Positions 1,312-58,484 of a stretch of 64,000 nucleotides of DNA are shown piece after piece. This DNA is from Nitrosopumilus sp. (lineage in GTDB: Archaea > Thermoproteota > Nitrososphaeria > Nitrososphaerales > Nitrosopumilaceae), in NCBI GenBank assembly GCA_965203315.1, contig OZ241857.1, forward strand, positions 480,001-544,000. The letters are read 5' to 3'. The notes below the pieces were generated by a model. The model was not told the DNA's origin and did not search any database. It saw nothing but the letters and a program-made list of their open reading frames with translations. Position 1 is the stretch's first letter. Each line of letters starts with the position of its first letter. The position numbers and the translations under genes are program-made.

Positions 1312-1611
1312 TCAAGCAGATCGACTCCTGTTATCTCGTAATCGTTTATTGGTACATTTGCAGTTTCGTTCTTTGATGTGTACGACAGACTTTGAGTCTG
1401 TATCGGATTTATCATATTTTGATATTAAAAGATAGTCATCAATTTTAATCCCCAGACTAGCTAGATGCTCAATGTTATTACACAAGAATTCTAGATCATC
1501 TGCTATCTCTTTTAGTCTAGTTCGGATACGGCGCTTGTATAATTTCTTGTTTGCAGCAGACAAGACTCCTGGCGAACTGACCACTTGTCTCTCTATATCA
1601 CTTAGACACAT
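1312..1611 (-). CDS. Small basic protein, paralog 1 of the actin-associated triplet
   Basis: MCLSDIERQVVSSP...YKRRIRTRLKEIADDLEFL; start overlaps the end of the actin gene. Confidence 0.75.
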   Translation of the reverse strand: MCLSDIERQVVSSPGVLSAANKKLYKRRIRTRLKEIADDLEFLCNNIEHLASLGIKIDDYLLISKYDKSDTDSKSVVHIKERNCKCTNKRLRDNRSRSA

Positions 1612-2468
1612 TTTGCCTGCCTCAACATTCCTAGTGCGTTTGCAAATACTGGCTCTTTAGCTACTTGTAAATTGGATATCGTATCGTTTCTGATCTCTGA
1701 TATCAACTTTGGTATTAATGCTCCTCCGCCTGCACATATTACAGGTAGGTTTGAATAATTTAAAACGACCTTTTCTAATGCATTTGAAATCGTACCTGCT
1801 AAAACTTTACGATACTGTGCTAGCTCGTTATCTCGTCTCTGAAATACAGTACTGTCTAGATACTCTACCATCGAAGTAGATATGGCATCTGTGATATCTC
1901 CAACTCCGTTCATTATAGTCTGACCATACGCAATATCGTCTCCAATCACTACCATTATCTCGGTTGTACCGTGGCCGATATGACATACGATACCATTCTG
2001 TATATTCTCATGTATCAGAGTGGCGCGTGCTTGGTACATCATTCCAAAGAACTTTGGTTTGAATCTCTCTACAACTGCAGCCTTGATCTGTTTTGATTTA
2101 TGTCGAGCTACATAAGGTATACCTGCGACTATAATCAAATCTTCATAGCTCTTTGGAGCATTATAGATGGGTTCTGTATGCGCCTTGAGAACTCTGTCCA
2201 AGGCATGTTGTATCAGAGCTAGATAGTCTCTCATGGATGTAGGCGCACCTCTATACACGGGAGTCTTTAGAACTATGGAGCGAATCGGTTCTAGCTTTAC
2301 TGCCGCATCACCTACTGCATACACTTCACTAGATTGATTGAGATCTAGTTTGTGCCCTCTTGCAATAACTGATGGAAACTTGAACTGTTGTGTACTGGTT
2401 GCGACCTTGACAGTCCCAGTCCCAATGTCTAGTCCAACTGTATTCAGATTCAACAATCTATACAGCAA
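1602..2468 (-). CDS. Actin-like ATPase (ParM/StbA/MreB-like)
   Basis: Actin-fold motifs GLDIGTGTVK (phosphate 1), HIGHGTT (phosphate 2), AGGGA (adenosine), PVFANALG (connect 2). Confidence 0.88.
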   Translation of the reverse strand: MLYRLLNLNTVGLDIGTGTVKVATSTQQFKFPSVIARGHKLDLNQSSEVYAVGDAAVKLEPIRSIVLKTPVYRGAPTSMRDYLALIQHALDRVLKAHTEPIYNAPKSYEDLIIVAGIPYVARHKSKQIKAAVVERFKPKFFGMMYQARATLIHENIQNGIVCHIGHGTTEIMVVIGDDIAYGQTIMNGVGDITDAISTSMVEYLDSTVFQRRDNELAQYRKVLAGTISNALEKVVLNYSNLPVICAGGGALIPKLISEIRNDTISNLQVAKEPVFANALGMLRQAKCV

Positions 2469-2857
2469 GTTTTGAATTTAAAGCGAAAAAAATACTCCAA
2501 AGATCTTACATAATAGTAGATGAAAATCTTTGAGCATTGTGGAAGATATTTTTGCTCGCAAAACAACCATAACAAAAACCTCCTTAATACAACAAATACA
2601 CTACTAGGCGTAAAAACAGCAAAACACAGCTAACATTTGAACGATAACACGATTAACCTTATCGTCAAGATTAGACGACAAATCGATCTCTGCAAACCAA
2701 AATCAAACCATAGATCTACTATCACGGTGTAAGATTATTCTGGATTTCCTCCTTTGAAAAATGTCTCAATCCGCCAAGAATTCACAAAACTTTTGCAGCT
2801 GTCAAGTATCACCGTGTTTAGTTCAAGGTTAGCTTTTGCTGTCTCAATTGAAAAGAG

Positions 2858-3553
2858 ATGAATCGTACAAAAGAATCCAAACCACAACACAGCACGGACT
2901 GTCCGACATACACACCACCAAACTGTTCACGTGCACTTCCAACAGATACCGAACCAAAACGCAATCTAATAAAATACCTGCCAATCGGTCTGAGTATAAT
3001 TGCCCTAGTATGTGCAATCGTTCTCACATATCCGAACTGGAGCGACAGCGCAACATCTCTACTAGGTGAATTCAAAGAAGGCAGTGTCTCATTTGGAGAG
3101 AGGCTTGAATCATTTGGTAGAGGAACATCAACAGCTTTTCACAACTCTTTCCTACAAGATGAATCTACAGAGATAGAATCTCCAAATGTAGACATAATCC
3201 GTGTAGGTGCAGCTGTAGTAAAACACACAGACAAACCAATAACAAACACAACAGCAGCTAGTACACTAACAAACGCAACGACAGTCAACACAGAAATCCA
3301 AACCAACAATACAAAAAACAAACAATACACAGCATCTAGTACATTTGAACAAGAGATGTACAACTGTCTTTTGCGGACAGGTGGACTAGAAGCAGTTGTA
3401 ATGTGCGAACGAGAAGGTACCATGTACTTTGTTGTGGATGAGCCCCAAGATACAGCAGTTCGATATCAGACCAATCTAACCATTGCCGATGACAGATACT
3501 TTGTCATTTATGAGCAGGGTAGAGAACAACACATCCTCGAGTTGTATCCCTAG
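2858..3553 (+). CDS. Membrane-anchored hypothetical protein with Thr-rich linker
   Basis: 231-aa ORF, one hydrophobic segment (LPIGLSIIALVCAIVLTY). Confidence 0.7.
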   Translation: MNRTKESKPQHSTDCPTYTPPNCSRALPTDTEPKRNLIKYLPIGLSIIALVCAIVLTYPNWSDSATSLLGEFKEGSVSFGERLESFGRGTSTAFHNSFLQDESTEIESPNVDIIRVGAAVVKHTDKPITNTTAASTLTNATTVNTEIQTNNTKNKQYTASSTFEQEMYNCLLRTGGLEAVVMCEREGTMYFVVDEPQDTAVRYQTNLTIADDRYFVIYEQGREQHILELYP

Positions 3554-3631
3554 AGCTCAGCATGCCAGTAATGGCACATCCTCTCTTTTTTCTAATTTTA
3601 CAATACAATCTTGAAATTTTACGCTACCCAC

Positions 3632-3726
3632 AGGGGCGAGACAGGCGATGATTATTCACCCAGCACTGAGAGAGTTTGACCCCTCTCAATGATGAATCTG
3701 GCGTTGTATGAGTCCTCGAATCCCCT
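3632..3726 (+). ncRNA. C/D unit A1 (BHB-flanked)
   Basis: ATGATTA-ttcacccagca-CTGA-hairpin-ATGATGA-atctggcgttgt-ATGA. Confidence 0.75.
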
Positions 3727-3767
3727 ACTTTATAATTCTCACTTTTCGCCAGATTTGGCTTTTGTAA

Positions 3768-3834
3768 AGTGAGGGCGATGATGAGAGAAACGACGTCTGA
3801 CTCTGATGGGCGTTACGATAACTGAGCCCTCACT
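3768..3834 (+). ncRNA. C/D unit B1
   Basis: agtgagggc/gccctcact stem; ATGATGA-gagaaacgacgt-CTGA..CTGATGG-gcgttacgataa-CTGA. Confidence 0.85.
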
Positions 3835-3868
3835 GTATGTACATTTCTTCTAACTATTAACTGTAATC

Positions 3869-3960
3869 GGGCGAGACAGGCGATGATGAGACGGAGCTAT
3901 ATGAGAGGGCATAGCCCCCTCAATGATTAGAGCCTGTTAATCAGAGTCCTCGAATCCCCT
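3869..3960 (+). ncRNA. C/D unit A2 (BHB-flanked)
   Basis: ATGATGA-gacggagctat-ATGA-hairpin-ATGATTA-gagcctgttaat-CAGA. Confidence 0.7.
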
Positions 3961-4001
3961 ACTTAATAATTTTCACTTTCAGCCAGATTTGGCTTTTGTA
4001 A

Positions 4002-4070
4002 AGTGAGGGCGATGATGAGAGAAACGAAATCTGACTCCATGATGAGTTACGACTAGTCTGAGCCCTCACT
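4002..4070 (+). ncRNA. C/D unit B2
   Basis: 9-bp terminal stem; ATGATGA-gagaaacgaaat-CTGA..ATGATGA-gttacgactagt-CTGA, all four boxes consensus. Confidence 0.9.
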
Positions 4071-4105
4071 GTCTGTACATTTCTTCTAACTATTAACTGT
4101 AATCT

Positions 4106-4196
4106 GGCGAGACAGACGATGAAGAGTAAGAACTCCACTGAGAGTGTTTGACCCCTCTCAATGATGAATGAGTTGCACAGAGTCCTCGAATCCCCT
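4106..4196 (+). ncRNA. C/D unit A3 (BHB-flanked)
   Basis: ATGAAGA-gtaagaactcca-CTGA-hairpin-ATGATGA-atgagttgca-CAGA. Confidence 0.7.
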
Positions 4197-4236
4197 ACTT
4201 AATAATTCTCGCTTGTTGCCAGATTTGGCTTTGTAA

Positions 4237-4307
4237 AGTGAGGGCAATGATGAGTGAAACGACGTCTGACATCTAGTGATGAAAGATAACCTGTCTGAGC
4301 CCTCACT
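4237..4307 (+). ncRNA. C/D unit B3
   Basis: 9-bp terminal stem; ATGATGA-gtgaaacgacgt-CTGA..GTGATGA-aagataacctgt-CTGA, all four boxes consensus. Confidence 0.9.
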
Positions 4308-4343
4308 GTTTGTACATTTTGCTAGCTATTAACTGTACTTGGC

Positions 4344-4430
4344 CGCGACAGACGATGATTATTAACTCAACACTGAGAGAAGATACTCCTCTCATTGATG
4401 AATCTGGCGTTGTAAGTCATCGAATTCACC
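4344..4430 (+). ncRNA. C/D unit A4 (degenerate)
   Basis: ATGATTA-ttaactcaaca-CTGA-hairpin-TTGATGA-atctggcgttgt; D box and BHB helix decayed. Confidence 0.55.
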
Positions 4431-4470
4431 ATGTTAGAATTATCCCTTTTCGCCAGATTTGGCTTTGTAA

Positions 4471-4537
4471 AGTGAGGGCAATGATGAGTGAAACGACTTC
4501 TGACTCTGATGAGTTACGACTAGTTTGAGCCCTCGCT
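4471..4537 (+). ncRNA. C/D unit B4
   Basis: ATGATGA-gtgaaacgactt-CTGA..CTGATGA-gttacgactagt-TTGA within agtgagggc/gccctcgct stem. Confidence 0.8.
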
Positions 4538-4569
4538 TGCTGTACATTTCGTCGAGTTATTACATCTAC

Positions 4570-4666
4570 AGGGGCGAGACAGACGATGAGGATGGATAGG
4601 AAATCTGAGGGCGTTTGACCACCTCTCAATGATGAACGAATCACATTCCGAGTCCTCGAACCCCCT
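4570..4666 (+). ncRNA. C/D unit A5 (BHB-flanked)
   Basis: ATGAGGA-tggataggaaat-CTGA-loop-ATGATGA-acgaatcacatt-CCGA; perfect agggg-cgag-aca-gac / gtc-ctcg-aac-cccct. Confidence 0.75.
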
Positions 4667-4725
4667 CATACTTTCTCTACTTATTTAGGTTGAGAATGGA
4701 CACGCTTGAATCACAAAGCGCATAG

Positions 4726-5118
4726 TTGGTCATCGTAAGGACCAAAATTACAGTGAACATATTAAAACTGTTCATCTGTGTAGTCGACACAGCAAAAAAT
4801 CGTCCAAGTGTATGCAGAAATTCAAAGAGCAATGACGGATGTCTAGAATTTCTGCGACAAGATCTCAAGTATCGTGAGGCAAAGTTTGGTCTTACAGATG
4901 ACGAGCTCTACTGTATGAACTTTATCAAACTAGAGCGCAAATACTTTGAGAGAGAATCAAATTTCACACATACACGTAATGAATCTATTACGTCCTTCAA
5001 CGAGGAGTGTGCGAAATATTGTCCTACTCCCTCAGACGTTTATGGGAGTGTACGTCATTTTTACGAGCACTTGGACAAACTAGAGAGAATGCGAGAAGTT
5101 AATCGACAATTCGTATGA
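4726..5118 (+). CDS. Hypothetical protein directly downstream of the C/D array
   Basis: 130-aa ORF followed by a T-run; no recognisable domain; start uncertain. Confidence 0.5.
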   Translation: MVIVRTKITVNILKLFICVVDTAKNRPSVCRNSKSNDGCLEFLRQDLKYREAKFGLTDDELYCMNFIKLERKYFERESNFTHTRNESITSFNEECAKYCPTPSDVYGSVRHFYEHLDKLERMREVNRQFV

Positions 5119-5285: not shown

Positions 5286-5894
5286 ATGAGCGACGAAAAA
5301 ACCAACAGACTATCTCGTAGAGAACAGATTCGCAAGTCTCTCAGAGACAATACAAAGTATACGTCGATTCTAACTGCAGGTGTATCGGCACTTGTGATGG
5401 GAGTTATGGCACTACTTGTAACTCCACCAGAACAAGATGCATATGCGCTAGCAATCATGGGAATCGGCATATCCTTTATTATCGCAAGTATCGTAGGGCT
5501 GATAATGGCATCGCAGACAGATGAGATTGCAGCTCGTATTTATGAGCGATTCGACAGACAAGATGAATTAGCAGAGAGACGTCATCAAGAGATGATATCA
5601 GTACTCAAAGAGATATCCAATAAACTAGACGCATTAGACAAGCTAGACAAGCTAGATGTCATGGATAGTAAACTGGACGTCATAGTCAACAACACCACCA
5701 AACTGGATGTCATAGTCAACAAACTAGACACCATAGACAACAACACCACCACCAAACTGGATGTCATAGTCAACAAACTAGACACCATAGACAACAACAC
5801 CACCACCAAACTGGATGTCATAGTCAACAAACTAGACACCATAGACAGTAAACTAGACACCATAGACAACAACACTAGACCATCTAATGCGTAG
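5286..5894 (+). CDS. 2TM + coiled-coil repeat protein, tandem copy 1
   Basis: Two hydrophobic helices then KLDVIVNKLDTIDNNTTT repeats. Confidence 0.85.
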   Translation: MSDEKTNRLSRREQIRKSLRDNTKYTSILTAGVSALVMGVMALLVTPPEQDAYALAIMGIGISFIIASIVGLIMASQTDEIAARIYERFDRQDELAERRHQEMISVLKEISNKLDALDKLDKLDVMDSKLDVIVNNTTKLDVIVNKLDTIDNNTTTKLDVIVNKLDTIDNNTTTKLDVIVNKLDTIDSKLDTIDNNTRPSNA

Positions 5895-6003
5895 CAAAAA
5901 ACCCAAAATCTTTTTTCTCGACTGAGACGTAAATCCCAAACCCGCATGGAATTTCTAATTTCCCCACACACTAGACTCAGCTAGGCAGGGTGTGCGGATT
6001 AAC

Positions 6004-6066
6004 TGAACCATATCTCATATTCCTGTACGTATAATCTAGTTCAGAGAGTACCAGGTTGAGTGAGAC
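6004..6066 (+). promoter_or_regulatory. Pseudoknot leader motif copy 2 (repeated at 6768-6830 and 7478-7540)
   Basis: tgaac-cat-tctca..cctgtac / gtaccagg..tgaga stem with an agttca loop. Confidence 0.55.
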
Positions 6067-6079
6067 AATTGAAAAAAGC

Positions 6080-6658
6080 ATGAGCGACGAAAAAACCAAC
6101 AGACTATCTCGTAGAGAACAGATTCGCAAGTCTCTCAGAGACAATACAAAGTATACGTCGATTCTAACTGCAGGTGTATCGGCACTTGTGATGGGAGTTA
6201 TGGCACTACTTGTAACTCCACCAGAACAAGATGCATATGCGCTAGCAATCATGGGAATCGGCATATCCTTTATTATCGCAAGTATCGTAGGGCTGATAAT
6301 GGCATCGCAGACAGATGAGATTGCAGCTCGTATTTATGAGCGATTCGACAGACAAGATGAATTAGCAGAGAGACGTCATCAAGAGATGATATCAGTACTC
6401 AAAGAGATATCCAATAAACTAGACGCATTAGACAAGCTAGACAAGCTAGATGTCATGGATAGTAAACTGGATGTCATAGTCAACAAACTAGACACCATAG
6501 ACAACAACACCACCACCAAACTGGATGTCATAGTCAACAAACTAGACACCATAGACAACAACACCACCACCAAACTGGATGTCATAGTCAACAAACTAGA
6601 CACCATAGACAGTAAACTAGACACCATAGACAACAACACTAGACCATCTAATGCGTAG
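6080..6658 (+). CDS. 2TM + coiled-coil repeat protein, tandem copy 2
   Basis: Same N-terminus as copy 1 from ATG 6080; 192 aa. Confidence 0.85.
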   Translation: MSDEKTNRLSRREQIRKSLRDNTKYTSILTAGVSALVMGVMALLVTPPEQDAYALAIMGIGISFIIASIVGLIMASQTDEIAARIYERFDRQDELAERRHQEMISVLKEISNKLDALDKLDKLDVMDSKLDVIVNKLDTIDNNTTTKLDVIVNKLDTIDNNTTTKLDVIVNKLDTIDSKLDTIDNNTRPSNA

Positions 6659-6843
6659 CAAAAAACCCAAAATCTTTTTTCTCGACTGAGACGTAAATCC
6701 CAAACCCGCATGGAATTTCTAATTTCCCCACACACTAGACTCAGCTAGGCAGGGTGTGCGGATTAACTGAACCATATCTCATATTCCTGTACGTATAATC
6801 TAGTTCAGAGAGTACCAGGTTGAGTGAGACAATTGAAAAAAGC

Positions 6844-7368
6844 ATGAGCGACGAAAAAACCAACAGACTATCTCGTAGAGAACAGATTCGCAAGTCTCTC
6901 AGAGACAATACAAAGTATACGTCGATTCTAACTGCAGGTGTATCGGCACTTGTGATGGGAGTTATGGCACTACTTGTAACTCCACCAGAACAAGATGCAT
7001 ATGCGCTAGCAATCATGGGAATCGGCATATCCTTTATTATCGCAAGTATCGTAGGGCTGATAATGGCATCGCAGACAGATGAGATTGCAGCTCGTATTTA
7101 TGAGCGATTCGACAGACAAGATGAATTAGCAGAGAGACGTCATCAAGAGATGATATCAGTACTCAAAGAGATATCCAATAAACTAGACGCATTAGACAAG
7201 CTAGACAAGCTAGATGTCATGGATAGTAAACTGGATGTCATAGTCAACAAACTAGACACCATAGACAACAACACCACCACCAAACTGGATGTCATAGTCA
7301 ACAAACTAGACACCATAGACAGTAAACTAGACACCATAGACAACAACACTAGACCATCTAATGCGTAG
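6844..7368 (+). CDS. 2TM + coiled-coil repeat protein, tandem copy 3
   Basis: Same N-terminus from ATG 6844; one 54-bp repeat fewer than copy 2; 174 aa. Confidence 0.85.
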   Translation: MSDEKTNRLSRREQIRKSLRDNTKYTSILTAGVSALVMGVMALLVTPPEQDAYALAIMGIGISFIIASIVGLIMASQTDEIAARIYERFDRQDELAERRHQEMISVLKEISNKLDALDKLDKLDVMDSKLDVIVNKLDTIDNNTTTKLDVIVNKLDTIDSKLDTIDNNTRPSNA

Positions 7369-9903: not shown

Positions 9904-9948
9904 AGATGGCGTGTATCTCAAACCCACATCCCATTTTTGAGGATAAAA

Positions 9949-10770
9949 ATGAGTCAAGTAAGAACCTCTGAGAAAGCCAGAGAGATACTAGTCGAACTAG
10001 CAGAAAAGTTCGGCAAGACCGAATTCGTAGACAGTTCGGCCAAGATGTTGATAGATGCTCGTACATATGCAAAGCCATCGAGCTCATGGTCATTGGGTAA
10101 TCAACTAGCAATGTACTTTGGTGGTACCATGGATGCAAGAGGATACAATCAATGGAACGCAGTAGGACGACATGTCAAGAAAGGAGCAAAGGCAATCTAC
10201 ATTCTAGGTCCAATGACTAGAAAGATCGAGCCCAAGGAGGGTGAAGACGAACGAATCATAATAACTGGATTTAGAGCGATACCCGTATTCCGATTCGAAG
10301 ATACAAAAGGTAAACCACTAAAAGAGTACAAACCCAAGACACTTCCACCGTTGTATCATCTAGCAGAAGAGAATGATATCAAGGTAGAGTATATCGAATC
10401 TAGACATGGTGAATATGGTTCGATACACATTCCAACAAAGAACATGACGCTGAGTACAGAGTCGCCGGATACGTTCTTGCACGAACTGATGCATCTATAC
10501 GACAACAAGAGTCAAGAACTGAAACCAGGACAAGACCCCATACAAGAGACTGTAGCACAGCTTGGTGCATGTGTTCTAGCCAAGATGTATGGATATGACG
10601 TAGAGGCACATACATGGAACTATATCTCAGCATATGCGGGTTCAAAAGATCCCAAAGCTGTTGGCAACATGTGCTTCAAGGTATTACAACGTGTTCAGCT
10701 AGCAATAAACAAGATACTAGATGATGCACAAGAACTGAAACCAATCGAGGCAAGTATAACAAAGATGTAG
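9949..10770 (+). CDS. ArdC-like ssDNA-binding/antirestriction protein with zincin-like domain
   Basis: WSLGNQL..RGYNQWNAVGRHVKKGAKAIYIL..FRAIPVFRFEDTKG (ArdC N-domain pattern) and HELMH. Confidence 0.85.
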   Translation: MSQVRTSEKAREILVELAEKFGKTEFVDSSAKMLIDARTYAKPSSSWSLGNQLAMYFGGTMDARGYNQWNAVGRHVKKGAKAIYILGPMTRKIEPKEGEDERIIITGFRAIPVFRFEDTKGKPLKEYKPKTLPPLYHLAEENDIKVEYIESRHGEYGSIHIPTKNMTLSTESPDTFLHELMHLYDNKSQELKPGQDPIQETVAQLGACVLAKMYGYDVEAHTWNYISAYAGSKDPKAVGNMCFKVLQRVQLAINKILDDAQELKPIEASITKM

Positions 10771-11667: not shown

Positions 11668-11883
11668 TTGTACGTATACACAATGACTGCAGTAGAGAAG
11701 GCAATAGAGTTGCTAGAGGGGCACCCATTCTATAACGTCCTAGTTGAATATGTTGCAACAAAAGCCACAAGATATACTCAAGCAAAGATCATATTTGACA
11801 AGAGACTTGGAGCAAGTTCAGGAACAGAAAATATGATACGTGATGCAGTATTTGATGCATTAAAACAGAGGCATGTGAGATGA
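11668..11883 (+). CDS. Hypothetical protein
   Basis: Co-oriented; stop overlaps nuclease start. Confidence 0.6.
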   Translation: MYVYTMTAVEKAIELLEGHPFYNVLVEYVATKATRYTQAKIIFDKRLGASSGTENMIRDAVFDALKQRHVR

Positions 11884-12470
11884 GATTTCGATATGGGACT
11901 ATTGGTGTTGTTGTGTTGTGTATGGGGCTAGTATTATTTGCAGCTAGTGTATTACCAAACTATCAATCAAACATAGATAAAGCCACAAACGAGATATCTG
12001 GCATAGATAGAACAACACCAAACGTTGAATCAAGTCAGGATAAAACACCAAACACCAACATCAATATAGATAGAACAACAAACATCGAAACAGATATCAC
12101 AGAACGAGATACCAGCTGCTCAATGTGTTATACGGGTATCGTAACTAGAATAGTTGACGGAGATACAATTCATGTAGATGATAATATAATACGACTTGCG
12201 ATGGTCGATACTCCTGAACGAGGTGAGTCAAACTATGCTGCCGCAACTGCACATACTAGATCTACATGCCCTATTGGTACAACAGCACTAGTTGATATAG
12301 ATGATCTGCAGATACAAGATCGTTATGGCAGACAGATAGCAAAGGTGACTTGCAGCGGTACAATACTGAACGAATCACTACTAGTATCAAATCTCGCAGA
12401 CGTGTATCACTACTTTTGTTCAAGGTCAGAGTTTGCGAGTGAACCTTGGTTGAACAACGAATGCACATAG
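11880..12470 (+). CDS. Secreted/anchored thermonuclease (SNase family)
   Basis: N-terminal hydrophobic helix; VTRIVDGDTI, IRLAMVDTPE, DRYGR motifs. Confidence 0.92.
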   Translation: MRFRYGTIGVVVLCMGLVLFAASVLPNYQSNIDKATNEISGIDRTTPNVESSQDKTPNTNINIDRTTNIETDITERDTSCSMCYTGIVTRIVDGDTIHVDDNIIRLAMVDTPERGESNYAAATAHTRSTCPIGTTALVDIDDLQIQDRYGRQIAKVTCSGTILNESLLVSNLADVYHYFCSRSEFASEPWLNNECT

Positions 12471-12938: not shown

Positions 12939-13077
12939 CACGCCAAAGTGTAGAGACGCTATCTCTTGCGCAATCAGTATCCTACTGCATAATATCATAT
13001 GATATCACATGATATCGTACTAGGACTGCTGCTCGGCAGGATTGCATGCGAAGAGATTCTTACAAGGAGGTGAAAGT
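12922..13077 (+). repeat. Dispersed ~145-bp intergenic repeat / leader copy 8
   Basis: tagaccaaaaggactagcacgccaaagtg...ctgc-tgctcg-gcag...GGAGG. Confidence 0.9.
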
Positions 13078-13674
13078 ATGAGAATAAGAAAGAGTATCTC
13101 AAACAAGATACAATCCTTTAGCGAGTCTATTGCTAAAGAGACTGTATATAGGATCGTGATGTTTGCAGGAATAGCTCTAACTGGATATGGAATTTATCTA
13201 CAAGACATAGCAATAATCATATCTGGATCAGCTTTAATAACTGCAAGTGTCATAGGTATAGTAATGTCTATGCAGACCAACAAGATTGCACATACTATCT
13301 ATGAGCGATTTGATAGACAAGATAAATTGGCGGATATGCGCCACAAAGAGACAATATCAGTACTAAAAGAGATGATGTCAGTACTAAAAGAGATAGTTAC
13401 ACTGCTAAAAGATAGCAAAGAATGTAACGAAAGAATGAGTCAAACACTAGACAGAATCGACAAAAACACAAGTAAACTAGACAGAATCGACAAAAACACA
13501 AGTAAACTAGACAGAATCGACAAAAACACAAGTAAACTAGACAGAATCGACAAAAACACAAGTAAACTAGACAGAATCGACAAAAACACAAGTAAACTAG
13601 ACAGAATCGACAAAAACACAAGTAAACTAGACAGAATCGACAAAAACACAAGTAAACTAGCTGAGAAACTGTAA
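13078..13674 (+). CDS. 2TM + coiled-coil paralog with 7 x 30-bp tandem repeat (LDRIDKNTSK)
   Basis: GGAGG RBS; perfect 30-bp repeats at about 13447-13656. Confidence 0.85.
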   Translation: MRIRKSISNKIQSFSESIAKETVYRIVMFAGIALTGYGIYLQDIAIIISGSALITASVIGIVMSMQTNKIAHTIYERFDRQDKLADMRHKETISVLKEMMSVLKEIVTLLKDSKECNERMSQTLDRIDKNTSKLDRIDKNTSKLDRIDKNTSKLDRIDKNTSKLDRIDKNTSKLDRIDKNTSKLDRIDKNTSKLAEKL

Positions 13675-13817
13675 TAGACCAAAAGGACTACACGCCAAAG
13701 TGTAGAGACGTTATCTCTTGCGCAATCAATATCTTACTGTATAATATCGTATAATATCGTACTAGGACTGCTGCTCGGCAGGATTGCATGCGAAGAGATT
13801 CTTACAGGAGGTAAGAG
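13675..13817 (+). repeat. Dispersed intergenic repeat / leader copy 9
   Basis: Near-identical to 12922-13077. Confidence 0.9.
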
Positions 13818-13906
13818 ATGAAAGAAAAAGATACTGGCAAAGTGCCAGATTGGATAGGTATGCCAGAACGTGTACCTTGTAGGCAACTATATCGGAATAG
13901 AACAAG

Positions 13907-14335
13907 ATGAATCGAGAAAGAACGTTAGAGAACATCCGTCGTCTCGGTAATACGTTAGCAAAGAATCAACTGTATACCGCAATATTGATGATCGGTACTG
14001 GTATGCTCACATCAGCTCTTGTTATTGATGATACACTCTTGTTATCGATAGGAATATCCTTTATAATTGCGAGTGTCGTAGGAATAATAATGGCATGGCA
14101 GACCAAAGAGATTGCAGCTGATCTACATCAACGATTTGATAGAATAGAAGATATTCTAAAGTCGAACCATAAAGAAGCTATGCACAACCATAAAGAGACT
14201 ATGAATAATCATAAAGAAGCTATGCAAAAACACAACGAAACCATATCTATTCTGAACAAGATGGTTGTTGTACTTGAACAAATCAAGACAGAGCTTAGAG
14301 AGATCAAAGAATCAAGTAAACCAGAAAAGAGATAG
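13907..14335 (+). CDS. 2TM + coiled-coil paralog
   Basis: IGISFIIASVVGIIMAWQT..IA..RFD family motif; preceded by 30-aa ORF 13818-13910. Confidence 0.85.
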   Translation: MNRERTLENIRRLGNTLAKNQLYTAILMIGTGMLTSALVIDDTLLLSIGISFIIASVVGIIMAWQTKEIAADLHQRFDRIEDILKSNHKEAMHNHKETMNNHKEAMQKHNETISILNKMVVVLEQIKTELREIKESSKPEKR

Positions 14336-17114: not shown

Positions 17115-17486
17115 ATGACTAAAAGTACATACAATAGATACAAAACTCTCAAAAACGTATTCATAAAGCAACCATTCTATACCATGATGCTTGCATTTGG
17201 TATATTTGGAATGTTTGCATCAGAGTGGAACATATACCAAGATCCAAATCTGCTACTCACGATTGGCATAGCTTTTATTAGTTCAAGTGTGGTAGGACTA
17301 GTTATGGCTTGGCACAGTGATAGAATAGCAAGTACATTGCATGAGCGATTTGATGAACAGAACGAGATCATGAAGTCAAATCACAAAGAGAGTATGTCTG
17401 TACTCAACAAGATGGTCGATGTACTTGAGCAAATCAAAACAGAGCTTAAAGAGATCAAAGAATCAAGTAAACCAGAAAATAGATAG
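17115..17486 (+). CDS. 2TM + coiled-coil paralog
   Basis: IGIAFISSSVVGLVMAWHS..IA..ERFD; C-terminus near-identical to 13907-14335. Confidence 0.85.
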   Translation: MTKSTYNRYKTLKNVFIKQPFYTMMLAFGIFGMFASEWNIYQDPNLLLTIGIAFISSSVVGLVMAWHSDRIASTLHERFDEQNEIMKSNHKESMSVLNKMVDVLEQIKTELKEIKESSKPENR

Positions 17487-17634
17487 ACCAAAAGGACTAG
17501 CACGCCAAAGTGTAGAGCCTTTATCTCTTGCGTAATCAATATTCTGTGTACAATATACGATATACGATATTGTACAACAGAACTGCTGCTCGGCAGGATT
17601 GTATGTGAAGAGATTCCCTATGGAGGTAGGAAAT
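17484..17634 (+). repeat. Dispersed intergenic repeat / leader copy 11
   Basis: Same repeat with different but still paired inner arm tgtacaatat/atattgtaca. Confidence 0.9.
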
Positions 17635-18540
17635 ATGAACAAAAATATGAATGGCTCATCAGAGCCAATACAGAACATTCGTGTTCTACCAATAAATCCG
17701 GTGGAGTTTATTCCAAGGAATGTCCCACGATTTATTGAGACTCGTAACGAGTCTGCAAGACTCCAAGTTGCAATGGAGTCAACTGATCCGCTACTTTTGG
17801 TTGGACCAAAAGGAATCGGAAAGACACTCTGCATTGATGCATTTGCAGCAAAGCTCAATGTACCGCTGATTCGATATGACTGTTCAGATGGTACGAAAAA
17901 GTTTGATCTCTATGGACGATTTACTATAATCGGACATGAGACGGTGTACAAACCCGGCATACTAGCTACTGCTATAGAGACAGCAAACCAGTTCGGTACA
18001 GCCGTTCTAGTACTAGAAGAGGTAAATGCGCTAAACGGTGCAATGCAAAAGGTACTGAACTCGCTATTAGATTATCGTCATTCGTTGATGATAGAAGAGT
18101 TGAACAAGGTGTATTCATTGAGAGATGGTGCCAATCTCTTGATATGTGCTACAATGAATCCCAGTACGTATGGTGGCACAAACGAACTGAACGAAGATCT
18201 AAAGTCTAGATTTGCCATCTGGAAGTGGAAGTATCCTGAAGAGAATGAAGAACGTGAAATACTCAACACACAAGGTATCCCAGAGTTGTTTGTAACTCGA
18301 ATGTTACAGTTTGCTCAAGATACGAGAAATACTGCAGCTGCAGGAAAGATAGAATATGCGCTATCACCACGTGATCTAGACATGTTCTTTAGACGATACC
18401 GCATATATCTTGGCAGACCAGAGTTTGGACTCGATACCGTATTTGAAGAGTGCATCTTGAACAAGTATGATGCGGCATCAGATATAGAGTATATCAACGA
18501 TCGAAGACAGTCTATATTTGGCAAGGATGTATCAAGATAA
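17635..18540 (+). CDS. MoxR/CbbQ-type AAA+ ATPase
   Basis: Walker A GPKGIGKT, Walker B VLEEVN, ATMNP sensor, DLKSRF Arg finger. Confidence 0.92.
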   Translation: MNKNMNGSSEPIQNIRVLPINPVEFIPRNVPRFIETRNESARLQVAMESTDPLLLVGPKGIGKTLCIDAFAAKLNVPLIRYDCSDGTKKFDLYGRFTIIGHETVYKPGILATAIETANQFGTAVLVLEEVNALNGAMQKVLNSLLDYRHSLMIEELNKVYSLRDGANLLICATMNPSTYGGTNELNEDLKSRFAIWKWKYPEENEEREILNTQGIPELFVTRMLQFAQDTRNTAAAGKIEYALSPRDLDMFFRRYRIYLGRPEFGLDTVFEECILNKYDAASDIEYINDRRQSIFGKDVSR

Positions 18541-20285
18541 TGTCTGTTATGATAGAGCGATATGAAAAAACTGCAAATATAGTAAACAACATCAAAGGTA
18601 CCAAGTTTACTCTACTGTGCGGTGATGGTAGAGATATCTTGTGGAAGAATAGCGAGATCATGATAACTGACAAAGATACACTGACCAATCTAGAGCACTC
18701 ACTAGCTCACATCATGTATGATTCTAGAGCACCAACAAACAGTACAATCATCGAGATAACAAAGACAGATCAAGGACATGATGGCTCGGCATTCTTTAAG
18801 GAGATATTCTATACACTAGAAGCAGAGCGAGTCGAGAGTAATTGGGGTGAGATATACTATGGTTCACATCAAGAGTTTGAACGACAGAGAAGTGAACGTG
18901 GTACAATGGATAGTGGTGAACTCGATCCAATGCGTGCAATACAGTTTGCTAGAAACGGTAGTATCGGCAAACTAGAGGGTACACAGTACGAGCAAGCCAT
19001 ACAATACATCAATACTGTACACGGTATGGACAGCAAGGTATCACTCAAGCTTGCCATAGAATACTATGAAAAATATGTCAAGGATTGGCTAGATGTACAA
19101 ATATCAAAGATACGAGAAGAGCATTTAGAGAAACTCGTACAGAGAATAAAAGATCACTTTGAAGAACAGATAGAGGAACAAAAGAGAGAGCTAGATAGAA
19201 CTGGAGATAAAAATGTACGGAAACGCATAAACGAGTTGTACAAAGACATGAGCAATACAATAGAGAACAAGACCATACATGACATACGCATATCTAGCTG
19301 GGATGTAGAAAATATCTTGAAAGACTATTCGACGAGAACACGTCAGGAATGTCATGAGAATAGTCCTAAAAAGTTGTCCAAGAGTACTGTACAAAGTATT
19401 CAAAAGAGAGATATGGACTCTTTGGTCAAACAAGGCAAGAAAGCAACTGCAAAGATCAATAGTAAGATCAAAGAGATCAATCGTCCTGTACAACCCAAAC
19501 TTGCAAACCTTGCAGAAAAGATACATGTCTCGAATAGACCTGAAGAAGAATATACCATAGATTATGAGACATCATACAGATTGCGCAAGTTGATCAACGA
19601 GGTTAAAGCAAGTCGTACACAAGTATACGACATGCAAGGAAATATGATAGATGTTGATGAGTATATCCAAGATATCATCAATACCAAACAAGGTATCTAT
19701 TGGGAAGACGAAGAACCTAGTAAGGGACTAGCTATTGTAATTGGCATAGATTGTTCAGGTTCTATGCCAGATGGTGCAATGCAGGCTTGTCGAGACATGT
19801 GTGCTACAATACTATACGCAACCCAGCGACTCAAAGATGTAGCAATAACATTTGTACCATGGAGTACAAGTAACAGTCGACACGATTTGTACGCCAACGA
19901 GTTTACGACACTAGACGAGATCAAATGCATATCAAAGAACTATGAGCCACAAAATGCCAATGATCTAGCACATCAATATCTAGACAGAGTCATCGCGAAG
20001 AGCAATGCCGTAAATAAAGTCATCATAATGATGACTGATGGTGAACCATACTGTCATGGAATAGATCCAAATGTGCTCTTTGCAAATACTGTAGAAGCAA
20101 TAAGACAGAGTAAGTTGAGAGGCAATCTAGTGTATGGCGTATTTCTGAACTTTGGCGCCAACGAAGATAGGGCAAAAAAGATGGCAGGCATGTATCGTAG
20201 TAACTTTGTATCGTGCAATACAATGAACGATGCAAGCAAGGCTGTCATCGAACTGACCCAGAATCACATCTTGAGAGCTATCTAG
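18540..20285 (+). CDS. vWA-domain partner of the MoxR ATPase
   Basis: MIDAS DCSGS...MTDGEP; N-terminal LEHSLAH/EAERVE metallopeptidase-like segment. Confidence 0.88.
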   Translation: MSVMIERYEKTANIVNNIKGTKFTLLCGDGRDILWKNSEIMITDKDTLTNLEHSLAHIMYDSRAPTNSTIIEITKTDQGHDGSAFFKEIFYTLEAERVESNWGEIYYGSHQEFERQRSERGTMDSGELDPMRAIQFARNGSIGKLEGTQYEQAIQYINTVHGMDSKVSLKLAIEYYEKYVKDWLDVQISKIREEHLEKLVQRIKDHFEEQIEEQKRELDRTGDKNVRKRINELYKDMSNTIENKTIHDIRISSWDVENILKDYSTRTRQECHENSPKKLSKSTVQSIQKRDMDSLVKQGKKATAKINSKIKEINRPVQPKLANLAEKIHVSNRPEEEYTIDYETSYRLRKLINEVKASRTQVYDMQGNMIDVDEYIQDIINTKQGIYWEDEEPSKGLAIVIGIDCSGSMPDGAMQACRDMCATILYATQRLKDVAITFVPWSTSNSRHDLYANEFTTLDEIKCISKNYEPQNANDLAHQYLDRVIAKSNAVNKVIIMMTDGEPYCHGIDPNVLFANTVEAIRQSKLRGNLVYGVFLNFGANEDRAKKMAGMYRSNFVSCNTMNDASKAVIELTQNHILRAI

Positions 20286-20308: not shown

Positions 20309-20430
20309 TAGACCAAAAGGACTAGCACGCCAAAGTGCAGAGCCGTTATCTCTTACGCAATCAATATCTCATTTGAGACCATGGCTCGATGGGATTGCGT
20401 ATGTGGAGATTCTCACAAGGAGGTGAAAGT
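20309..20430 (+). repeat. Dispersed intergenic repeat / leader copy 12 (divergent)
   Basis: Short inner arm; hairpin ccat-ggctcg-atgg replaces ctgc-tgctcg-gcag. Confidence 0.85.
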
Positions 20431-20826
20431 ATGAGAATAAGAAAGAGCATCTCAAACAAGATACAATCCTTTAGCGAGTCTATTGCTAAAGAGACTGTAT
20501 ACAGGATCGTAATGTTTGCAGGAATAGCTCTAACTGGATATGGGATTTATCTACAAGACATAGCAATAATCATATCTGGATCAGCTTTAATAGCTGCAAG
20601 TGTCATAGGTATAGTAATGTCTATGCAGACCAACAAGATTGCAGGTAATCTTTACAATCGAATTGACAAACAAACTGCACTCTTGGAATCAAGCCTCAAC
20701 AAGATGGTTGCTGTACTAGAACGAATGGACAAGAAACTGGACAAATTAGACACAATAGATACAAAGCTGGACAAATTAGACACAATAGATACAAAGCTGG
20801 ACAATATAGACAAGAAAATGGACTAG
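20431..20826 (+). CDS. 2TM + coiled-coil paralog
   Basis: First ~70 aa near-identical to 13078; LDKLDTIDTK repeats. Confidence 0.85.
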   Translation: MRIRKSISNKIQSFSESIAKETVYRIVMFAGIALTGYGIYLQDIAIIISGSALIAASVIGIVMSMQTNKIAGNLYNRIDKQTALLESSLNKMVAVLERMDKKLDKLDTIDTKLDKLDTIDTKLDNIDKKMD

Positions 20827-32775: not shown

Positions 32776-34708
32776 TCCCTTTCATCTCACTGATTAAAAT
32801 GAATAAATGTACAATAAAAACAAAATATTGTACAATGCCAACCAATAAACTACTTGCTGCATTAACCCCCGTAGCCATGAGAGATCATTCCAGATCATTC
32901 ATTAGATAAAGAAATTTTAATTGGGGGTGTCCCCCCTTAACAGCACATTCCGATAACAAGGAAAATGACATCAGACTCAATATTGTAAAATTCGTTGAAC
33001 GTCACAAAGATGACAAATATGAGATGGGTGAAGCTCAATTATTTCTATCCGAGTTTCTGCAATGTTTTGGAATCGATCCAAAAGAAGCCAAATTCGAGCA
33101 TCATCCCAAACAGGGATCCAAAGATCGCATAGACATGTTGTTGCCAGGCAAGCTTTTAGTCGAAATGAAATCAGCTAAAAAAGACATCATAGGTGCATTA
33201 AATCAGGCTGAAAGATACAACGGAATGCTACAACGAAGCGATCAACCTGATTTTTTACTTGCATGTAATTTTCAAGGATGGCGACTGCTAGATAAACGAG
33301 ACAATTCAGAATATCCGTTCAACATACATTGGTTGGTAGAGAACATTGGTCTTTTCTACTTTTTACTAGGTAAACCCATATTTGTAAAAACAGATCCAGT
33401 AAATGAAAAAGCTACCAAAATAATGTCCCAAATACATGAATCATTAAAAAAAGATACTGAAAAATCTGGAGAGGGTGCTATTGATTTTCTACTCACTAGA
33501 TTAGCGTTCTGTCTATTTGCAGATAATACAGGTATTTTTGAAACGAATAGTTTTCAAGAATATATCAAGAATGTTAAAAATGGTAGTGATGTTCGCATGA
33601 ATTTAGAGAGATTATTTGAGATATTAGATACACCAAAAGAAAAGAGATCCAAATCCATACGTGAACGATTTAATAAATTTCAATACATAGATGGTGATCT
33701 ATTTAATATGAAAAAAATGAATTTTGATAATCCTAAAGTAAAAATGCGAATTCCAGAGTTTACTGATAAAACACGAGAATTGCTTATTAAAGCAGGTGAA
33801 TATGATTGGTCCAAAGTCAGTCCAGCTATATTTGGTTCCATGTTTCAAAATGTTATTTCAGAAAATGATAAAAAAACTAACAGAGACAGTAGACGTGAGA
33901 TGGGTGCTCACTATACCACAGAAGAAAATATACGTAAGGTTATAGTACCATTGTTTCTCAAAGATCTAAATCATGAATTTAACAAGATTAATGAGTCTAA
34001 TTCTCAAGACAAATTAACAAAGTACAAAGAATTACGAGACAAAATGTCCAAATTAACATTTTTTGATCCTGCGTGTGGGTCGGGTAACTTTTTATCAATA
34101 ACATACAAAGAGTTGAGGCGTCTCGAAATGCGTATAATAACAGAAATGAGAATCATTAACCCTAAAACAAAAATAGAGTCCAAATTGGATGTGCATCAAT
34201 TTTATGGTATAGAGATAAATAGGTTTTCTTCTAAAATAGCAGAAGTATCAATATGGATGATGGATCATTTAATGAATCGTGAATTATCTGTACAGTTTGA
34301 GCTACCTGCGTATAGGTTTCCGCTCGAAAAGAAGCCACATATTCATAATGTGGACGCCCTTGGTGTAAATTGGAATGATATTTTACCTTCTGATAAATGT
34401 GATTATATTTTAGGGAATCCACCATTTGGTGGATATGCCACAATATCTGAAGAACAAAAAATTAGAATAGCATCATTATATAGTAAATATGATATCAAAG
34501 ATGTAAATAAATTAGATTTTGTATGCGGTTGGTTTATCAAATCTGGAGAATACTGCAATGATAAGAATAATACAAAAATAGGTTTAGTTTCTACAAATTC
34601 TATTACACAAGGTGAACAAGTATACCCATTATGGACAATTTTGCTTGATAAATTACAATTATATATAAATTTCGCATACAAATCATTTCCATGGTCATCC
34701 GAAACTAA

Positions 34709-36245
34709 GGAGTTCATGCGAAAGTCGTTTTGAAGACTCGGGACGCCTAGCAACAAAGACATTCCAAATTATAAAGTGATCTCAGGTTTGTGATCTGTGC
34801 AATTGTACAATTATACATGTAGAGTCAAAACAGTGAATTATACCTTGATATCTTACAATATCATTCTATAAATCACAATGTTGGTGCGTATTATTTACGC
34901 AACTATTCGGTGAGATAATTTCATCTTTTTTAGTTTAGCCTGTTTTTTACGGTTTATCTTTACTCTCCATGCTGCAACAAGCTCTTCTAATCTAGGACTA
35001 GGTCTGCCGTGTTCATGATCCCAAAGAACGTGATAGTTGACCAGTGTAGATGCCATCTTGAAGGCATCGTTGTATTGGTCGTCATCTCCTCGGAACATGT
35101 TGAACAAGAGTTTAAACTGCTTTACACATCCAACTACGTGTTCTACTGTGGCGCGTTCACTGTCTATCTTTTTGTTGTATATCTCTTGTTCTTTTGTGAG
35201 TTGCCCACCTTTGGGTTTCTTGTATTTTATGCCTATCTTGGCACCTACAAAGATATCTCGAATCCCTAGGAATCCCAGATCTACTAGAATGTACAGTCTT
35301 TGGCGAAGTGGAGTGTTTGGATCTGTTAACGACATGGACCACTTGCCAAGATTCAGTTTGAGCTCTTTGAATATGCTGAAATCGTGTGTCTTACCAGGAA
35401 ACGTAGGAGACACATGTACTATCAGTCTCTCTTTTGTACACATCAATAGAGTATTTACCGTATGCATCTTTTTTTTGCCTGATTTGTAGTCATTGCGTAT
35501 CTCTCTATCTACGGGTGTTGGAACACGAGTGTGTGATCCATCGAACAAGAATGTATGATCCTTTACCCATTTTGCAAGCTCTTTCTTTGTCTTGCATTTA
35601 CTTATCGCATTTGCCAACTCGTCTGGCGAAAAACCCAAACTTTGAAAAAACTGATTCATGTATGTACAGTACCGGGACACATTACTCTGATCTATACCAA
35701 ATCTACTGGCAAGATGGCACTGACTGTGACCACTTACCAGTCTCAGAATTGCCAAGAGCATGGCATACTCGGGAGTTAGTTTGGATATTCTTCCACGCAC
35801 TATGAGAACATTACGAAACTGTCTGTGAACATCTGCTGCCGGTATCCATTCTATAAACAGGCCGAGCAAAAAGTTAAACATGTCAAAATCCAGCTTTGTA
35901 TGCTCCCATAGAGTCTTTTCATTGCTAAGAATATTCTTACATGGAGGGAGCTCGAGTTCTTTTTTTGCTGCTTTGAGCTGTTCTTCTGCTATATCTGCAC
36001 GTTCTTCGGCTGCTTTGAGTCGTTGTTCAAGCACTAGTTCCTTGTTCGAGTTAGCCATACTCTTGTTTATTCAAATTGGTATTTACCATAGAGTGTCTTA
36101 AAAAATTGTCTTGTTGCGTATTCTATTTTTGGTTAATTTTTTACTCCTCCTCAGATACACGAAACCCGCAATAACTCGGAGAATTTAGTCAGATTTGACC
36201 CATCACACATCATATGTGCCTGAAAATGACTTTCGCATGAACTCC
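34709..36245 (-). mobile_element. IS5-family (ISL2/Harbinger-like) element
   Basis: TIR ggagttcatgcgaaagtc; TAA target duplication. Confidence 0.93.
34895..36058 (-). CDS. IS5-family transposase (HTH + DDE)
   Basis: FDGS, YKSGKKKMH, DLGFLG, ERATVEH. Confidence 0.92.
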   Translation of the reverse strand: MANSNKELVLEQRLKAAEERADIAEEQLKAAKKELELPPCKNILSNEKTLWEHTKLDFDMFNFLLGLFIEWIPAADVHRQFRNVLIVRGRISKLTPEYAMLLAILRLVSGHSQCHLASRFGIDQSNVSRYCTYMNQFFQSLGFSPDELANAISKCKTKKELAKWVKDHTFLFDGSHTRVPTPVDREIRNDYKSGKKKMHTVNTLLMCTKERLIVHVSPTFPGKTHDFSIFKELKLNLGKWSMSLTDPNTPLRQRLYILVDLGFLGIRDIFVGAKIGIKYKKPKGGQLTKEQEIYNKKIDSERATVEHVVGCVKQFKLLFNMFRGDDDQYNDAFKMASTLVNYHVLWDHEHGRPSPRLEELVAAWRVKINRKKQAKLKKMKLSHRIVA

Positions 36246-58265: not shown

Positions 58266-58484
58266 ATGACTTTTACTCTATGTATGATGCAAAAAGAATC
58301 AAAGATCGAGAAAGACTTAGAATGTGTTGTATGTAATAAAATGTTCAGGGAATTAGCTCTTCCTAAAGAGACAGAGACTATTTGTATGGACTGTTTACCC
58401 ACATATGACAAAGCAGTGGGGGATTATGTCAAATATCTTGATGAGCAAGAAGCAAAAGAAAAAGCCATGGAAAACACGGCATGA
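58266..58484 (+). CDS. Small Zn-finger protein
   Basis: CVVC...CMDC; overlaps the TIR gene start. Confidence 0.6.
   Translation: MTFTLCMMQKESKIEKDLECVVCNKMFRELALPKETETICMDCLPTYDKAVGDYVKYLDEQEAKEKAMENTA

Follow-up and report, generated by a model that had tools for sequence, protein, structure and literature searches.

We analyzed a tandem array of nine units in a 64,000-nucleotide (nt) window of a Nitrosopumilus genome (G000:C1:480001-544000; 99.98% complete, 7 contigs). The units are probably genuine archaeal box C/D small RNA (sRNA) genes carried by a plasmid-like element, with at least some of their guides directing 2'-O-methylation of the host ribosomal RNA (rRNA). This conclusion draws on the anatomy of the units, the covariation of their stems, the C/D machinery of the host, the synteny of the element, and the complementarity of the guides to rRNA. 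In our reading, the genes are of the ordinary archaeal box C/D type and unusual only in their location and number; we do not read them as the TIGR-like array named in the first-pass annotation of this stretch.

The array occupied positions 3633-4665 of the window on the plus strand, and the units followed the order A1-B1-A2-B2-A3-B3-A4-B4-A5 with a period of 234 base pairs (bp). Unit borders were set by sequence inspection, using box and stem anchors and two covariance models, R1 built from the B units and R2 from the A units. Tandem Repeats Finder reported a single array at 3666-4636 (period 234, 4.1 copies, 75% matches, score 984). The first-pass annotation had described nine units at 3632-4666, a period of about 235 bp with two unit types, and a stem-C-guide-D'-C'-guide-D-stem layout. 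Each of these features was recovered in the resolved units, and the layout is the architecture of archaeal C/D sRNAs. Between the units lay 35-43 nt of non-unit DNA, and no open reading frame (ORF) of at least 80 amino acids (aa) overlapped 3554-4725.

The B units (65-69 nt) began with an 8-bp terminal stem, an RUGAUGA C box, a 12-nt guide, and a CUGA D' box. These were followed by a 2-6-nt loop, the C' box, a second 12-nt guide, and a CUGA D box. The C' box of B1 and the D box of B4 were off consensus, and the strict pattern agreed with the earlier observation that B2 and B3 carry four consensus boxes and 12-nt guides. In the A units (90-95 nt), the terminal stem was split and the C box degenerate. 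A 5-bp hairpin separated the D' box, which read CUGA, from the AUGAUGA C' box, and the D box had the form NNGA. The guides of the A units were 10-12 nt long when the C box was taken as the AUGA-containing heptamer conserved in relatives; an alternative C box 3 nt upstream gave D' guides of 14-15 nt. The GA core of the C and D boxes was kept in four of the five A units. In the alignment of the A units, the terminal stem of A4 was weakened and its D box lacked GA.

The A-to-B spacer that follows A1 recurred 3' of A2, A3, and A4, and for spacer conservation the B segments averaged 87% column identity. Judging from the sequence, the TATA-like box of this spacer may act as a promoter. The DNA of this stretch occurred in the samples of runs X1-X5, and no RNA run was listed for it. 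In contigs from four DNA sequencing runs, no base differences from the array were listed, with patchy coverage of the array in three of the runs. One contig of run X4 (depth 47) skipped one 234-bp period by joining 3747 to 3982. As 46 letters match on either side of this join, it may reflect an assembly collapse instead of a real copy-number variant.

The whole 2.47-Mb genome was scanned with box patterns. The strict four-box pattern matched only three places, namely B1, B2, and B3. The looser scan, based on a C box, a D box, and a stem of at least 5 bp, gave 13 places, three of which were array units. The B units folded better than shuffled sequences, with z-scores of -3.0 to -3.8. In alignments fitted to the covariance models, which somewhat favours the structure, the A-type stems were paired in 92% of cells across relatives, 8 of 13 pairs had changed on both sides, and the covariation score was reached by none of 500 shuffles; the alignment of B-type units with a core sRNA was 92.2% paired, with 5 of 8 pairs changed on both sides, and slid controls were 26-61% paired.

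Boxes and guides were also compared for conservation. Information per position was 1.5-1.9 bits in the boxes versus 0.25-0.29 in the guides of 42 parsed units, the box figure being partly built in because the parser demands box-like motifs. The parsed set comprised those 42 of 52 distinct non-core units that the parser could split. Inside the array, variable columns made up 24 of 24 guide columns versus 47 of 91 other columns in the A units, and 15 of 24 versus 37 of 123 in the B units. The first-pass annotation had stated that boxes no more conserved than guides would speak against guide RNA genes; across relatives, the boxes carried more information than the guides and were the more conserved part.

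Rfam matches below the gathering score were consistent with this identity. Over 3550-4750, 98 such matches were obtained, all on the plus strand and nearly all to families of C/D-box small nucleolar RNA (snoRNA) or sRNA; two rows belonged to a microRNA family. They included archaeal sR families and snoPyro_CD, and many of the archaeal matches covered the full model. The best match was to sR1 (E-value 1.8e-4, 26.7 bits versus a cut-off of 45).

Related units were found in other genomes of the genus. R1 matched in 82 of 151 genomes, and in most small genomes the one weak R1 match was a distinct core sRNA, conserved across Nitrosopumilus and with guides that do not vary. The strict box scans missed it owing to its D box of AUGA or UUGA. 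In the window genome, this core C/D sRNA is located at G000:C5:253433-253496, and its D' guide predicts methylation at 23S C2510. Besides the array units, the looser scan gave one other plausible candidate, a chromosomal C/D sRNA between two tRNA-Pro genes at G000:C1:182993-183042 on the minus strand. B-scaffold units were present in at least 15 genomes and formed arrays in G172 (two loci of 7 and 6 units), G145 (about 12), G163 (4), G169 (3), and G150 (2). A-type units recognized by R2 occurred in 11 of the 151 genomes and were always single outside the window genome (G000).

For the guide test, the 11 nt adjoining each D or D' box were compared with the 16S and 23S rRNA of the same genome. 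The D' guide of the B units was nearly fixed in the array (3 of 12 columns varying), and identical D guides were found in B2 and B4 and in A1 and A4. As a result of guide sharing among units, the 18 guides gave 13 distinct full-length (11-nt) guide words. The earlier statement that the guides vary as spacers do was therefore right for the guide columns, which were the most variable, and wrong for the B D' guide and for the guides shared between units.

Five of the 13 distinct guides paired with host rRNA at no fewer than 10 of the 11 positions. With shuffled guides, the mean was 0.59 and the maximum 3, and none of 300 shuffles reached five. Among the control targets, reversed rRNA gave 0 matches and antisense rRNA gave 1, while random genome segments averaged 0.79 and 1 of 100 reached five (count 13). 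This enrichment fits the proposal that the guides address host RNA. Among transfer RNA (tRNA) targets, no match exceeded 9.5/11.

Target sites were predicted by the N+5 rule, in which an archaeal guide pairs over about 9 or more nt and the target nucleotide faces the fifth nt upstream of D or D'. The rRNAs were aligned to the annotated Escherichia coli operon, and sites are given in E. coli numbering (Table 1). The 23S record of E. coli is 1 nt shorter than the customary numbering, and 1 was added to 23S positions. The D' and D guides of the B units mapped to the two strands of upper helix 44 (h44). Several guides recurred across genomes and scaffold types and converged on the same rRNA sites, a pattern that does not support a view of the guides as free spacers. 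The helix 31 (h31) stretch of 16S rRNA (small-subunit rRNA, SSU, 917-933) was matched in four registers, by both scaffold types and both guide positions; the guides belonged to A units, to B-scaffold units in G145, G172, and G007, and to the metagenome-assembled contig L049. The 23S A2451 stretch was matched by A2 and by G145 guides in the same register, and L070 (G036) has a closely related guide. The stretches of h31, the h44 5' strand, and the 530 loop were identical in the window genome and four readable related genomes, and the h44 3' strand was read in two. PMC7994747 describes hot spots of predicted methylation that surround the peptidyl-transferase centre, H68-71, and the decoding region; the predicted target regions of the array resemble those around the peptidyl-transferase and decoding centres.

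Table 1. Features of the array and of the surrounding element in the window, with the rRNA sites predicted for the guides (LSU, large-subunit rRNA; fractions are paired positions).
Feature	Position	Strand	Characteristics	Predicted methylation site
A1, type-A box C/D sRNA gene, 93 nt	3633-3725	+	R2 106.5 bits; boxes located	D guide: 16S C970 (h31), 10/11 at SSU 921
A-to-B spacer	3726-3768	+	TATA-like box 3729-3735, ~34 nt before B1; small hairpin	
B1, type-B box C/D sRNA gene, 65 nt	3769-3833	+	Strict four-box match; R1 80.3 bits; fold z-score -3.0	D' guide: 16S C1407 (h44)
A2	3868-3959	+	R2 89.9 bits; D' box AUGA, C' box off consensus	D guide: 23S A2451 (peptidyl-transferase centre), 9 Watson-Crick + 1 G-U of 11, LSU 2540
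B2	4003-4069	+	R1 89.3 bits; strict four-box match	D guide: 16S G1494 (opposite strand of upper h44), 9/11 at SSU 1437
A3	4104-4195	+	R2 93.9 bits	D' and D guides: 23S sites 24 nt apart, LSU 835 and 859, 10/11 and 9.5/10
B3	4238-4306	+	R1 87 bits; strict four-box match	D' guide: 16S C1407 (h44), 10/11; D guide: 23S 2116 (LSU 2215), 10/11
A4	4340-4429	+	Lowest R2 score, 77 bits; most degenerate copy	
B4	4472-4536	+	R1 82.5 bits; D box UUGA	D' guide: 16S C1407 (h44); D guide: 16S G1494 (opposite strand of upper h44)
A5	4571-4665	+	R2 93.9 bits	D' guide: 23S C2515, beside the predicted C2510 of the core sRNA, 10/11 at LSU 2604
ParM/actin-like partition gene	1602-2468	-	Pfam MreB_Mbl/ALP_N; PHROG partition protein; divergent from array; marker of the element backbone	
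231-aa ORF	2858-3553	+	Hydrophobic stretch; between ParM-like gene and array	
ArdC-like anti-restriction gene	9937-10770	+	Weak Pfam ArdcN; PHROG anti-restriction; 59% identity to L043 ORF	
SNase-like nuclease gene	11880-12470	+	Pfam SNase; PHROG endonuclease	

The proteins needed for a C/D ribonucleoprotein (RNP) were encoded by the host. Nop5 (C1:1871476-1872108), about 1.39 Mb from the window, adjoined the fibrillarin gene, and L7Ae was present, with two matches to its family. A search of all six frames of the whole genome with PF01798 gave host Nop5 as the sole match and no second Nop-domain frame at an E-value of 0.001 or below. The absence of a Nop-domain ORF, reported earlier for the window, thus extends to the whole genome apart from host Nop5, and the suggestion that element-borne guides use the host's C/D RNP for methylating host RNA agrees with the presence of L7Ae, Nop5, and fibrillarin together with the rRNA-complementary guides. 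For the other suggestion, a Tas-like effector encoded elsewhere, no candidate was found.

A role as a guide library, TIGR-like or otherwise, that serves a non-fibrillarin effector (Tas-like or SNase-like) and is aimed at competitors or viruses is very improbable. Tandem dual-guide units on a mobile element would suit such a library, as would the many guides that lack an rRNA match. An SNase-like homologue also begins 42-86 nt after the last C/D unit in L039, L040, L043, and L044 (in the window, it lies 7.2 kb downstream), but SNase-like nucleases are common plasmid backbone genes. Against the library stand the single Nop-domain gene of the genome and the flanking ORFs (2858-3553 and 4726-5118), which had no Pfam, PHROG, or Atlas match. 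In addition, the longest exact complements of the guides elsewhere in the genome, outside the array, were 10-12 nt, which is the length expected by chance, and viral contigs contained no real units, with 0 matches to the full scaffold pattern. A viral origin was likewise discarded: looser patterns gave 9 and 1 contigs, none of which matched either covariance model, and the one inspected was coding sequence. The metagenome scan for units yielded only 3 contigs with weak model scores. In PMC12045711, TIGR arrays are defined by two alternating 8-12-nt repeats, spacers of about 9 nt, products of about 36 nt, and an adjacent Nop-domain Tas gene; the size, K-turn boxes, and spacing of the present units lie outside this definition. 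The TIGR-like label was therefore dropped, given units that are 65-95-nt K-turn RNAs in a 234-bp period, and TIGR-Tas identity was rejected on this anatomy and on the sequence search that found no second Nop-domain gene.

The box C/D units were also located inside insertion sequences. Twelve single units (A- or B-type) preceded, by 30-110 nt and in the same orientation, the gene for an intact IS6/IS240-like DDE transposase of about 370 aa (L008, L012, L013, L023, L061, L063, L064, L065, L066, L069, L070, and L072). Two copies in G073 shared 91.7% identity across 1,270 bp, from 9 nt before the unit to about 30 nt past the transposase stop. Since this segment spans both unit and transposase, the RNA gene lies inside the mobile unit. 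Many single units were bordered by a 7-9-nt inverted repeat, and there were 1-2 copies per genome, with a transposase gene. A TATA-like box was found 3' of many insertion-sequence units, including single A-type units, about 25 nt before the transposase ATG, and the same motif occurred 3' of A1-A3 in the array, where a B unit replaces the transposase. On the basis of this common motif, we infer an origin of the array module in the left end of an IS6/IS240-like insertion sequence, whose TATA-like promoter may now drive the B units of the array. Such an insertion sequence probably both supplied and carried the module.

The co-orientation of the 12 units with intact transposase genes and the inclusion of the unit in the mobile segment would also be expected if the units were the insertion sequence's own guide RNAs, similar to bridge RNA or omega RNA, which guide or regulate transposition and of which the array is a by-product. 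However, the longest words that the guides of these units shared with the 80-nt upstream flank or the right end of the insertion sequence were 4-10 nt, within the range of shuffled flanks (mean about 6, maxima 8-12). Furthermore, same-family transposase copies inside the window carried no C/D unit, and the D guide of insertion-sequence units matched 16S rRNA. We consider such a role highly unlikely.

The synteny of the region agreed with the earlier proposal that the array lies on a mobile element, as the ParM-, ArdC-, and SNase-like genes (Table 1) were syntenic at different chromosomal places in other genomes. Units divergent from a ParM-like gene were found in the window and in seven related loci (L039, L040, L041, L044, L045, L052, and L056), the latter having 1 to about 12 units. 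In these relatives, the gap between the ParM-like gene and the units was 283-445 nt, the ParM proteins were 45-56% identical, and the ORF at 2858-3553 was absent from the matching position. The related elements also carried the SNase-like nuclease, a small 71-aa protein, coiled-coil paralogues, and in one case the ArdC-like gene. The element loci occupied different chromosomal places, and G172 had two copies. No capsid or terminase families were detected among the 31 ORFs of window 1-24 kb, and the element was therefore called plasmid-like. Insertion sequences and restriction-modification genes are abundant in the island that makes up the wider region.

Because the array adjoins a ParM-like gene and plasmid centromeres are tandem repeats, a DNA-level role was considered, in which the repeats are a centromere, iterons, or another protein-binding array beside the partition gene and not RNA genes. 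This is extremely improbable. Single-copy versions at the same position, stems that covary, which is not required of a DNA-binding site, and a separate set of palindromic repeats in G172 make a centromere role unlikely, and the same units are found upstream of transposase genes without any ParM. The G172 repeat, at L039 6951-7232, consists of five copies of a 20-nt palindrome between the array and the ParM-like gene and is a candidate centromere or iteron set; it is the better centromere candidate. No G172-like palindromic repeats or iterons were found in window 2440-3640.

Several further genes of the region were recorded. Coiled-coil-like ORF paralogues with homologues on the related elements occurred at window 5286-7368, 13042-14335, 17115-17486, and 20389-20826. 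Three of these paralogues are in tandem, with 54-, 21-, and 9-bp coding repeats. The ORF at 13042-13674 contains a perfect 30-bp tandem repeat of 7.2 copies (13446-13660). The element also carries a MoxR-like AAA_5 ATPase gene followed by a VWA-domain gene (17599-20285). An MmeI-like restriction-modification gene is apparently split (33024-37245). One part (33024-34733) encodes the N-terminal, helicase-spacer, and methylase domains, the other (36277-37245) the target-recognition and C-terminal domains; between them sits a DDE_Tnp_4 transposase gene (34895-36058, minus strand). One weak R1 match at 37154-37202 lay inside the MmeI C-terminal ORF and was rejected as spurious. The left flank, L058 (G000:C1:460001-480000), belongs to the same variable island and contains two restriction-modification systems, a TBP paralogue, a ParB-HTH protein, a DUF5131 protein, and four transposase genes of three families. 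The chromosomal part of the window includes genes for a TIR-domain protein (58481-59188) and a serpin (62532-63938).

Several results weigh against nine functional box C/D sRNA genes. Four of the five A units folded no better than shuffled sequences (z-scores of -1.3 to +0.3), the C and D boxes of the A units were off consensus, and A4 looked decayed. Rfam gave no match at the gathering score over the array, although its families are guide-specific and a failed match therefore says little. The best rRNA matches were just 9-10/11, mostly with a mismatch at position 1, and 8 of the 13 distinct guides had no match of 10/11 or better. Both best matches of a unit lay within 100 nt of each other in just 2 of 9 units, a figure that is at most suggestive. 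Related guides that match one site in the same register may share descent, in which case they are not independent. Moreover, methylation of A2451 could harm rather than help the ribosome. The guides of other elements, compared with the rRNA of this genome, gave 6 of 65 at 10/11 or better versus 3.2 expected, and 27 of 300 shuffles reached six, so that the excess was not significant.

This lack of enrichment on other elements is what would be expected of selfish or neutral passengers, that is, MITE-like sRNA modules on an insertion sequence and an element, duplicated in tandem, mostly with orphan guides and without a useful role. We regard this explanation as unlikely, even though several points favour it: inverted repeats border single units within a mobile unit of about 1.27 kb, decay is visible in A4 and B4, the array contains duplicate guides, and PMC6009581 describes a MITE-like sRNA element in Pyrobaculum calidifontis. 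Passengers would not account for the compensatory changes that keep boxes and stems across genomes or for the rRNA enrichment of the window guides. Neither would they explain why guides on both scaffold types, in different registers, address the same rRNA stretches, nor why the position beside the ParM-like gene is kept in eight loci.

Under the preferred explanation of nine genuine sRNA genes at a fixed site on an integrated, plasmid-like element, the array would have arisen by about 4.5 tandem duplications of a 234-bp module containing one A and one B unit. Duplication followed by guide change would have produced a small set of different specificities, leaving redundant copies (the B D' guide, B2 = B4, and A1 = A4) and one decaying copy (A4). 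The RNAs would be made from the plus strand, cut back to the stems that their K-turns protect, and packaged with L7Ae, Nop5, and fibrillarin, of which the host has one set. Some of the guides, at least, would then direct 2'-O-methylation of host rRNA in functional centres, at 16S C970, C1407, and G1494 and at 23S A2451 and C2515. Such modifications might benefit the element, by protecting or tuning ribosomes, or the host, or neither.

A bolder extension, which we hold to be rather doubtful, is that mobile elements of ammonia-oxidizing archaea diversify their own guides and re-programme the catalytic and decoding centres of the host ribosome through the host methylation machinery, with the module spreading as insertion-sequence cargo. 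If so, the guides could shield ribosomes from the ribosome-targeting toxins or antibiotics of competitors, or bias translation, and ribosome modification would here be both programmable and horizontally transferred.

Box C/D guide RNAs are regarded as chromosomal housekeeping genes, many in thermophiles and few in mesophiles. Here, a mesophilic ammonia oxidizer obtains most of its recognizable C/D guides from mobile DNA, as an expandable array and as insertion-sequence cargo, and several array guides are predicted to address the peptidyl-transferase and decoding centres. If the RNAs are active, patterns of rRNA modification would differ between strains of these abundant marine archaea and could be passed on horizontally, and mobile elements would hold a simple, programmable means to alter host ribosomes. 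The array would also be a natural case for the birth, movement, and retargeting of guide RNA genes. In the open literature, with subscription journals outside the search, C/D sRNAs in ammonia oxidizers, archaeal plasmids, or insertion sequences were not described. The words sRNA, ParM, actin, SWIM, and non-coding were absent from the text of a survey of thaumarchaeal integrated elements (PMC6563490).

Compared with known systems, the array resembles eukaryotic snoRNA clusters in having several C/D guide genes in head-to-tail order that are probably transcribed together. In plants, yeast, and trypanosomatids, snoRNA genes occur in clusters or polycistrons; these are eukaryotic and chromosomal, usually comprise unrelated snoRNAs, and are not on mobile elements. 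Such clusters are mentioned in PMC12045711.

The closest resemblance was to archaeal box C/D sRNAs, including the sR RNAs of Pyrococcus and Sulfolobus and the Pyrobaculum families covered by PMC6009581, with which the array has in common the C, D', C', and D boxes, the K-turn stem, and guides of about 12 nt. In both cases, the RNAs are dual-guide with predicted sites near each other in functional centres of rRNA, the host encodes the three core proteins, and the genes evolved by duplication and guide change. PMC6009581 describes known archaeal C/D sRNA genes as mostly independent, with a few polycistrons or dicistrons. In contrast, nine genes form one tandem array here, and their carriers are a plasmid-like element and an insertion sequence. 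In the host, a mesophilic ammonia oxidizer, the strict scan finds the array only and one conserved core sRNA was found. The A units also differ in their D'-C' hairpin and degenerate C and D boxes.

The MITE-like element of P. calidifontis (PMC6009581) carries a C/D sRNA in a mobile unit with short inverted repeats and about 15 dispersed copies. Like many of the single units seen here, it places a C/D sRNA in mobile DNA with short inverted repeats, which points to transposon-like spread of guide RNA genes. Here, however, the vehicle is an autonomous insertion sequence with a transposase, together with a ParM-bearing element, and the array copies are in tandem and not dispersed.

TIGR-Tas, as presented in PMC12045711, is similar in having tandem dual-guide units with box C/D-like motifs on mobile DNA. 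It differs in its products of about 36 nt, whereas the array has 65-95-nt units, 10-12-nt guides that match rRNA, and 35-43-nt non-unit spacers, and the PF01798 search of the array genome found no Tas/Nop gene adjacent or elsewhere beyond host Nop5. The array therefore offers a concrete contrast to TIGR-Tas, as a tandem C/D-type array that would use the cellular RNP.

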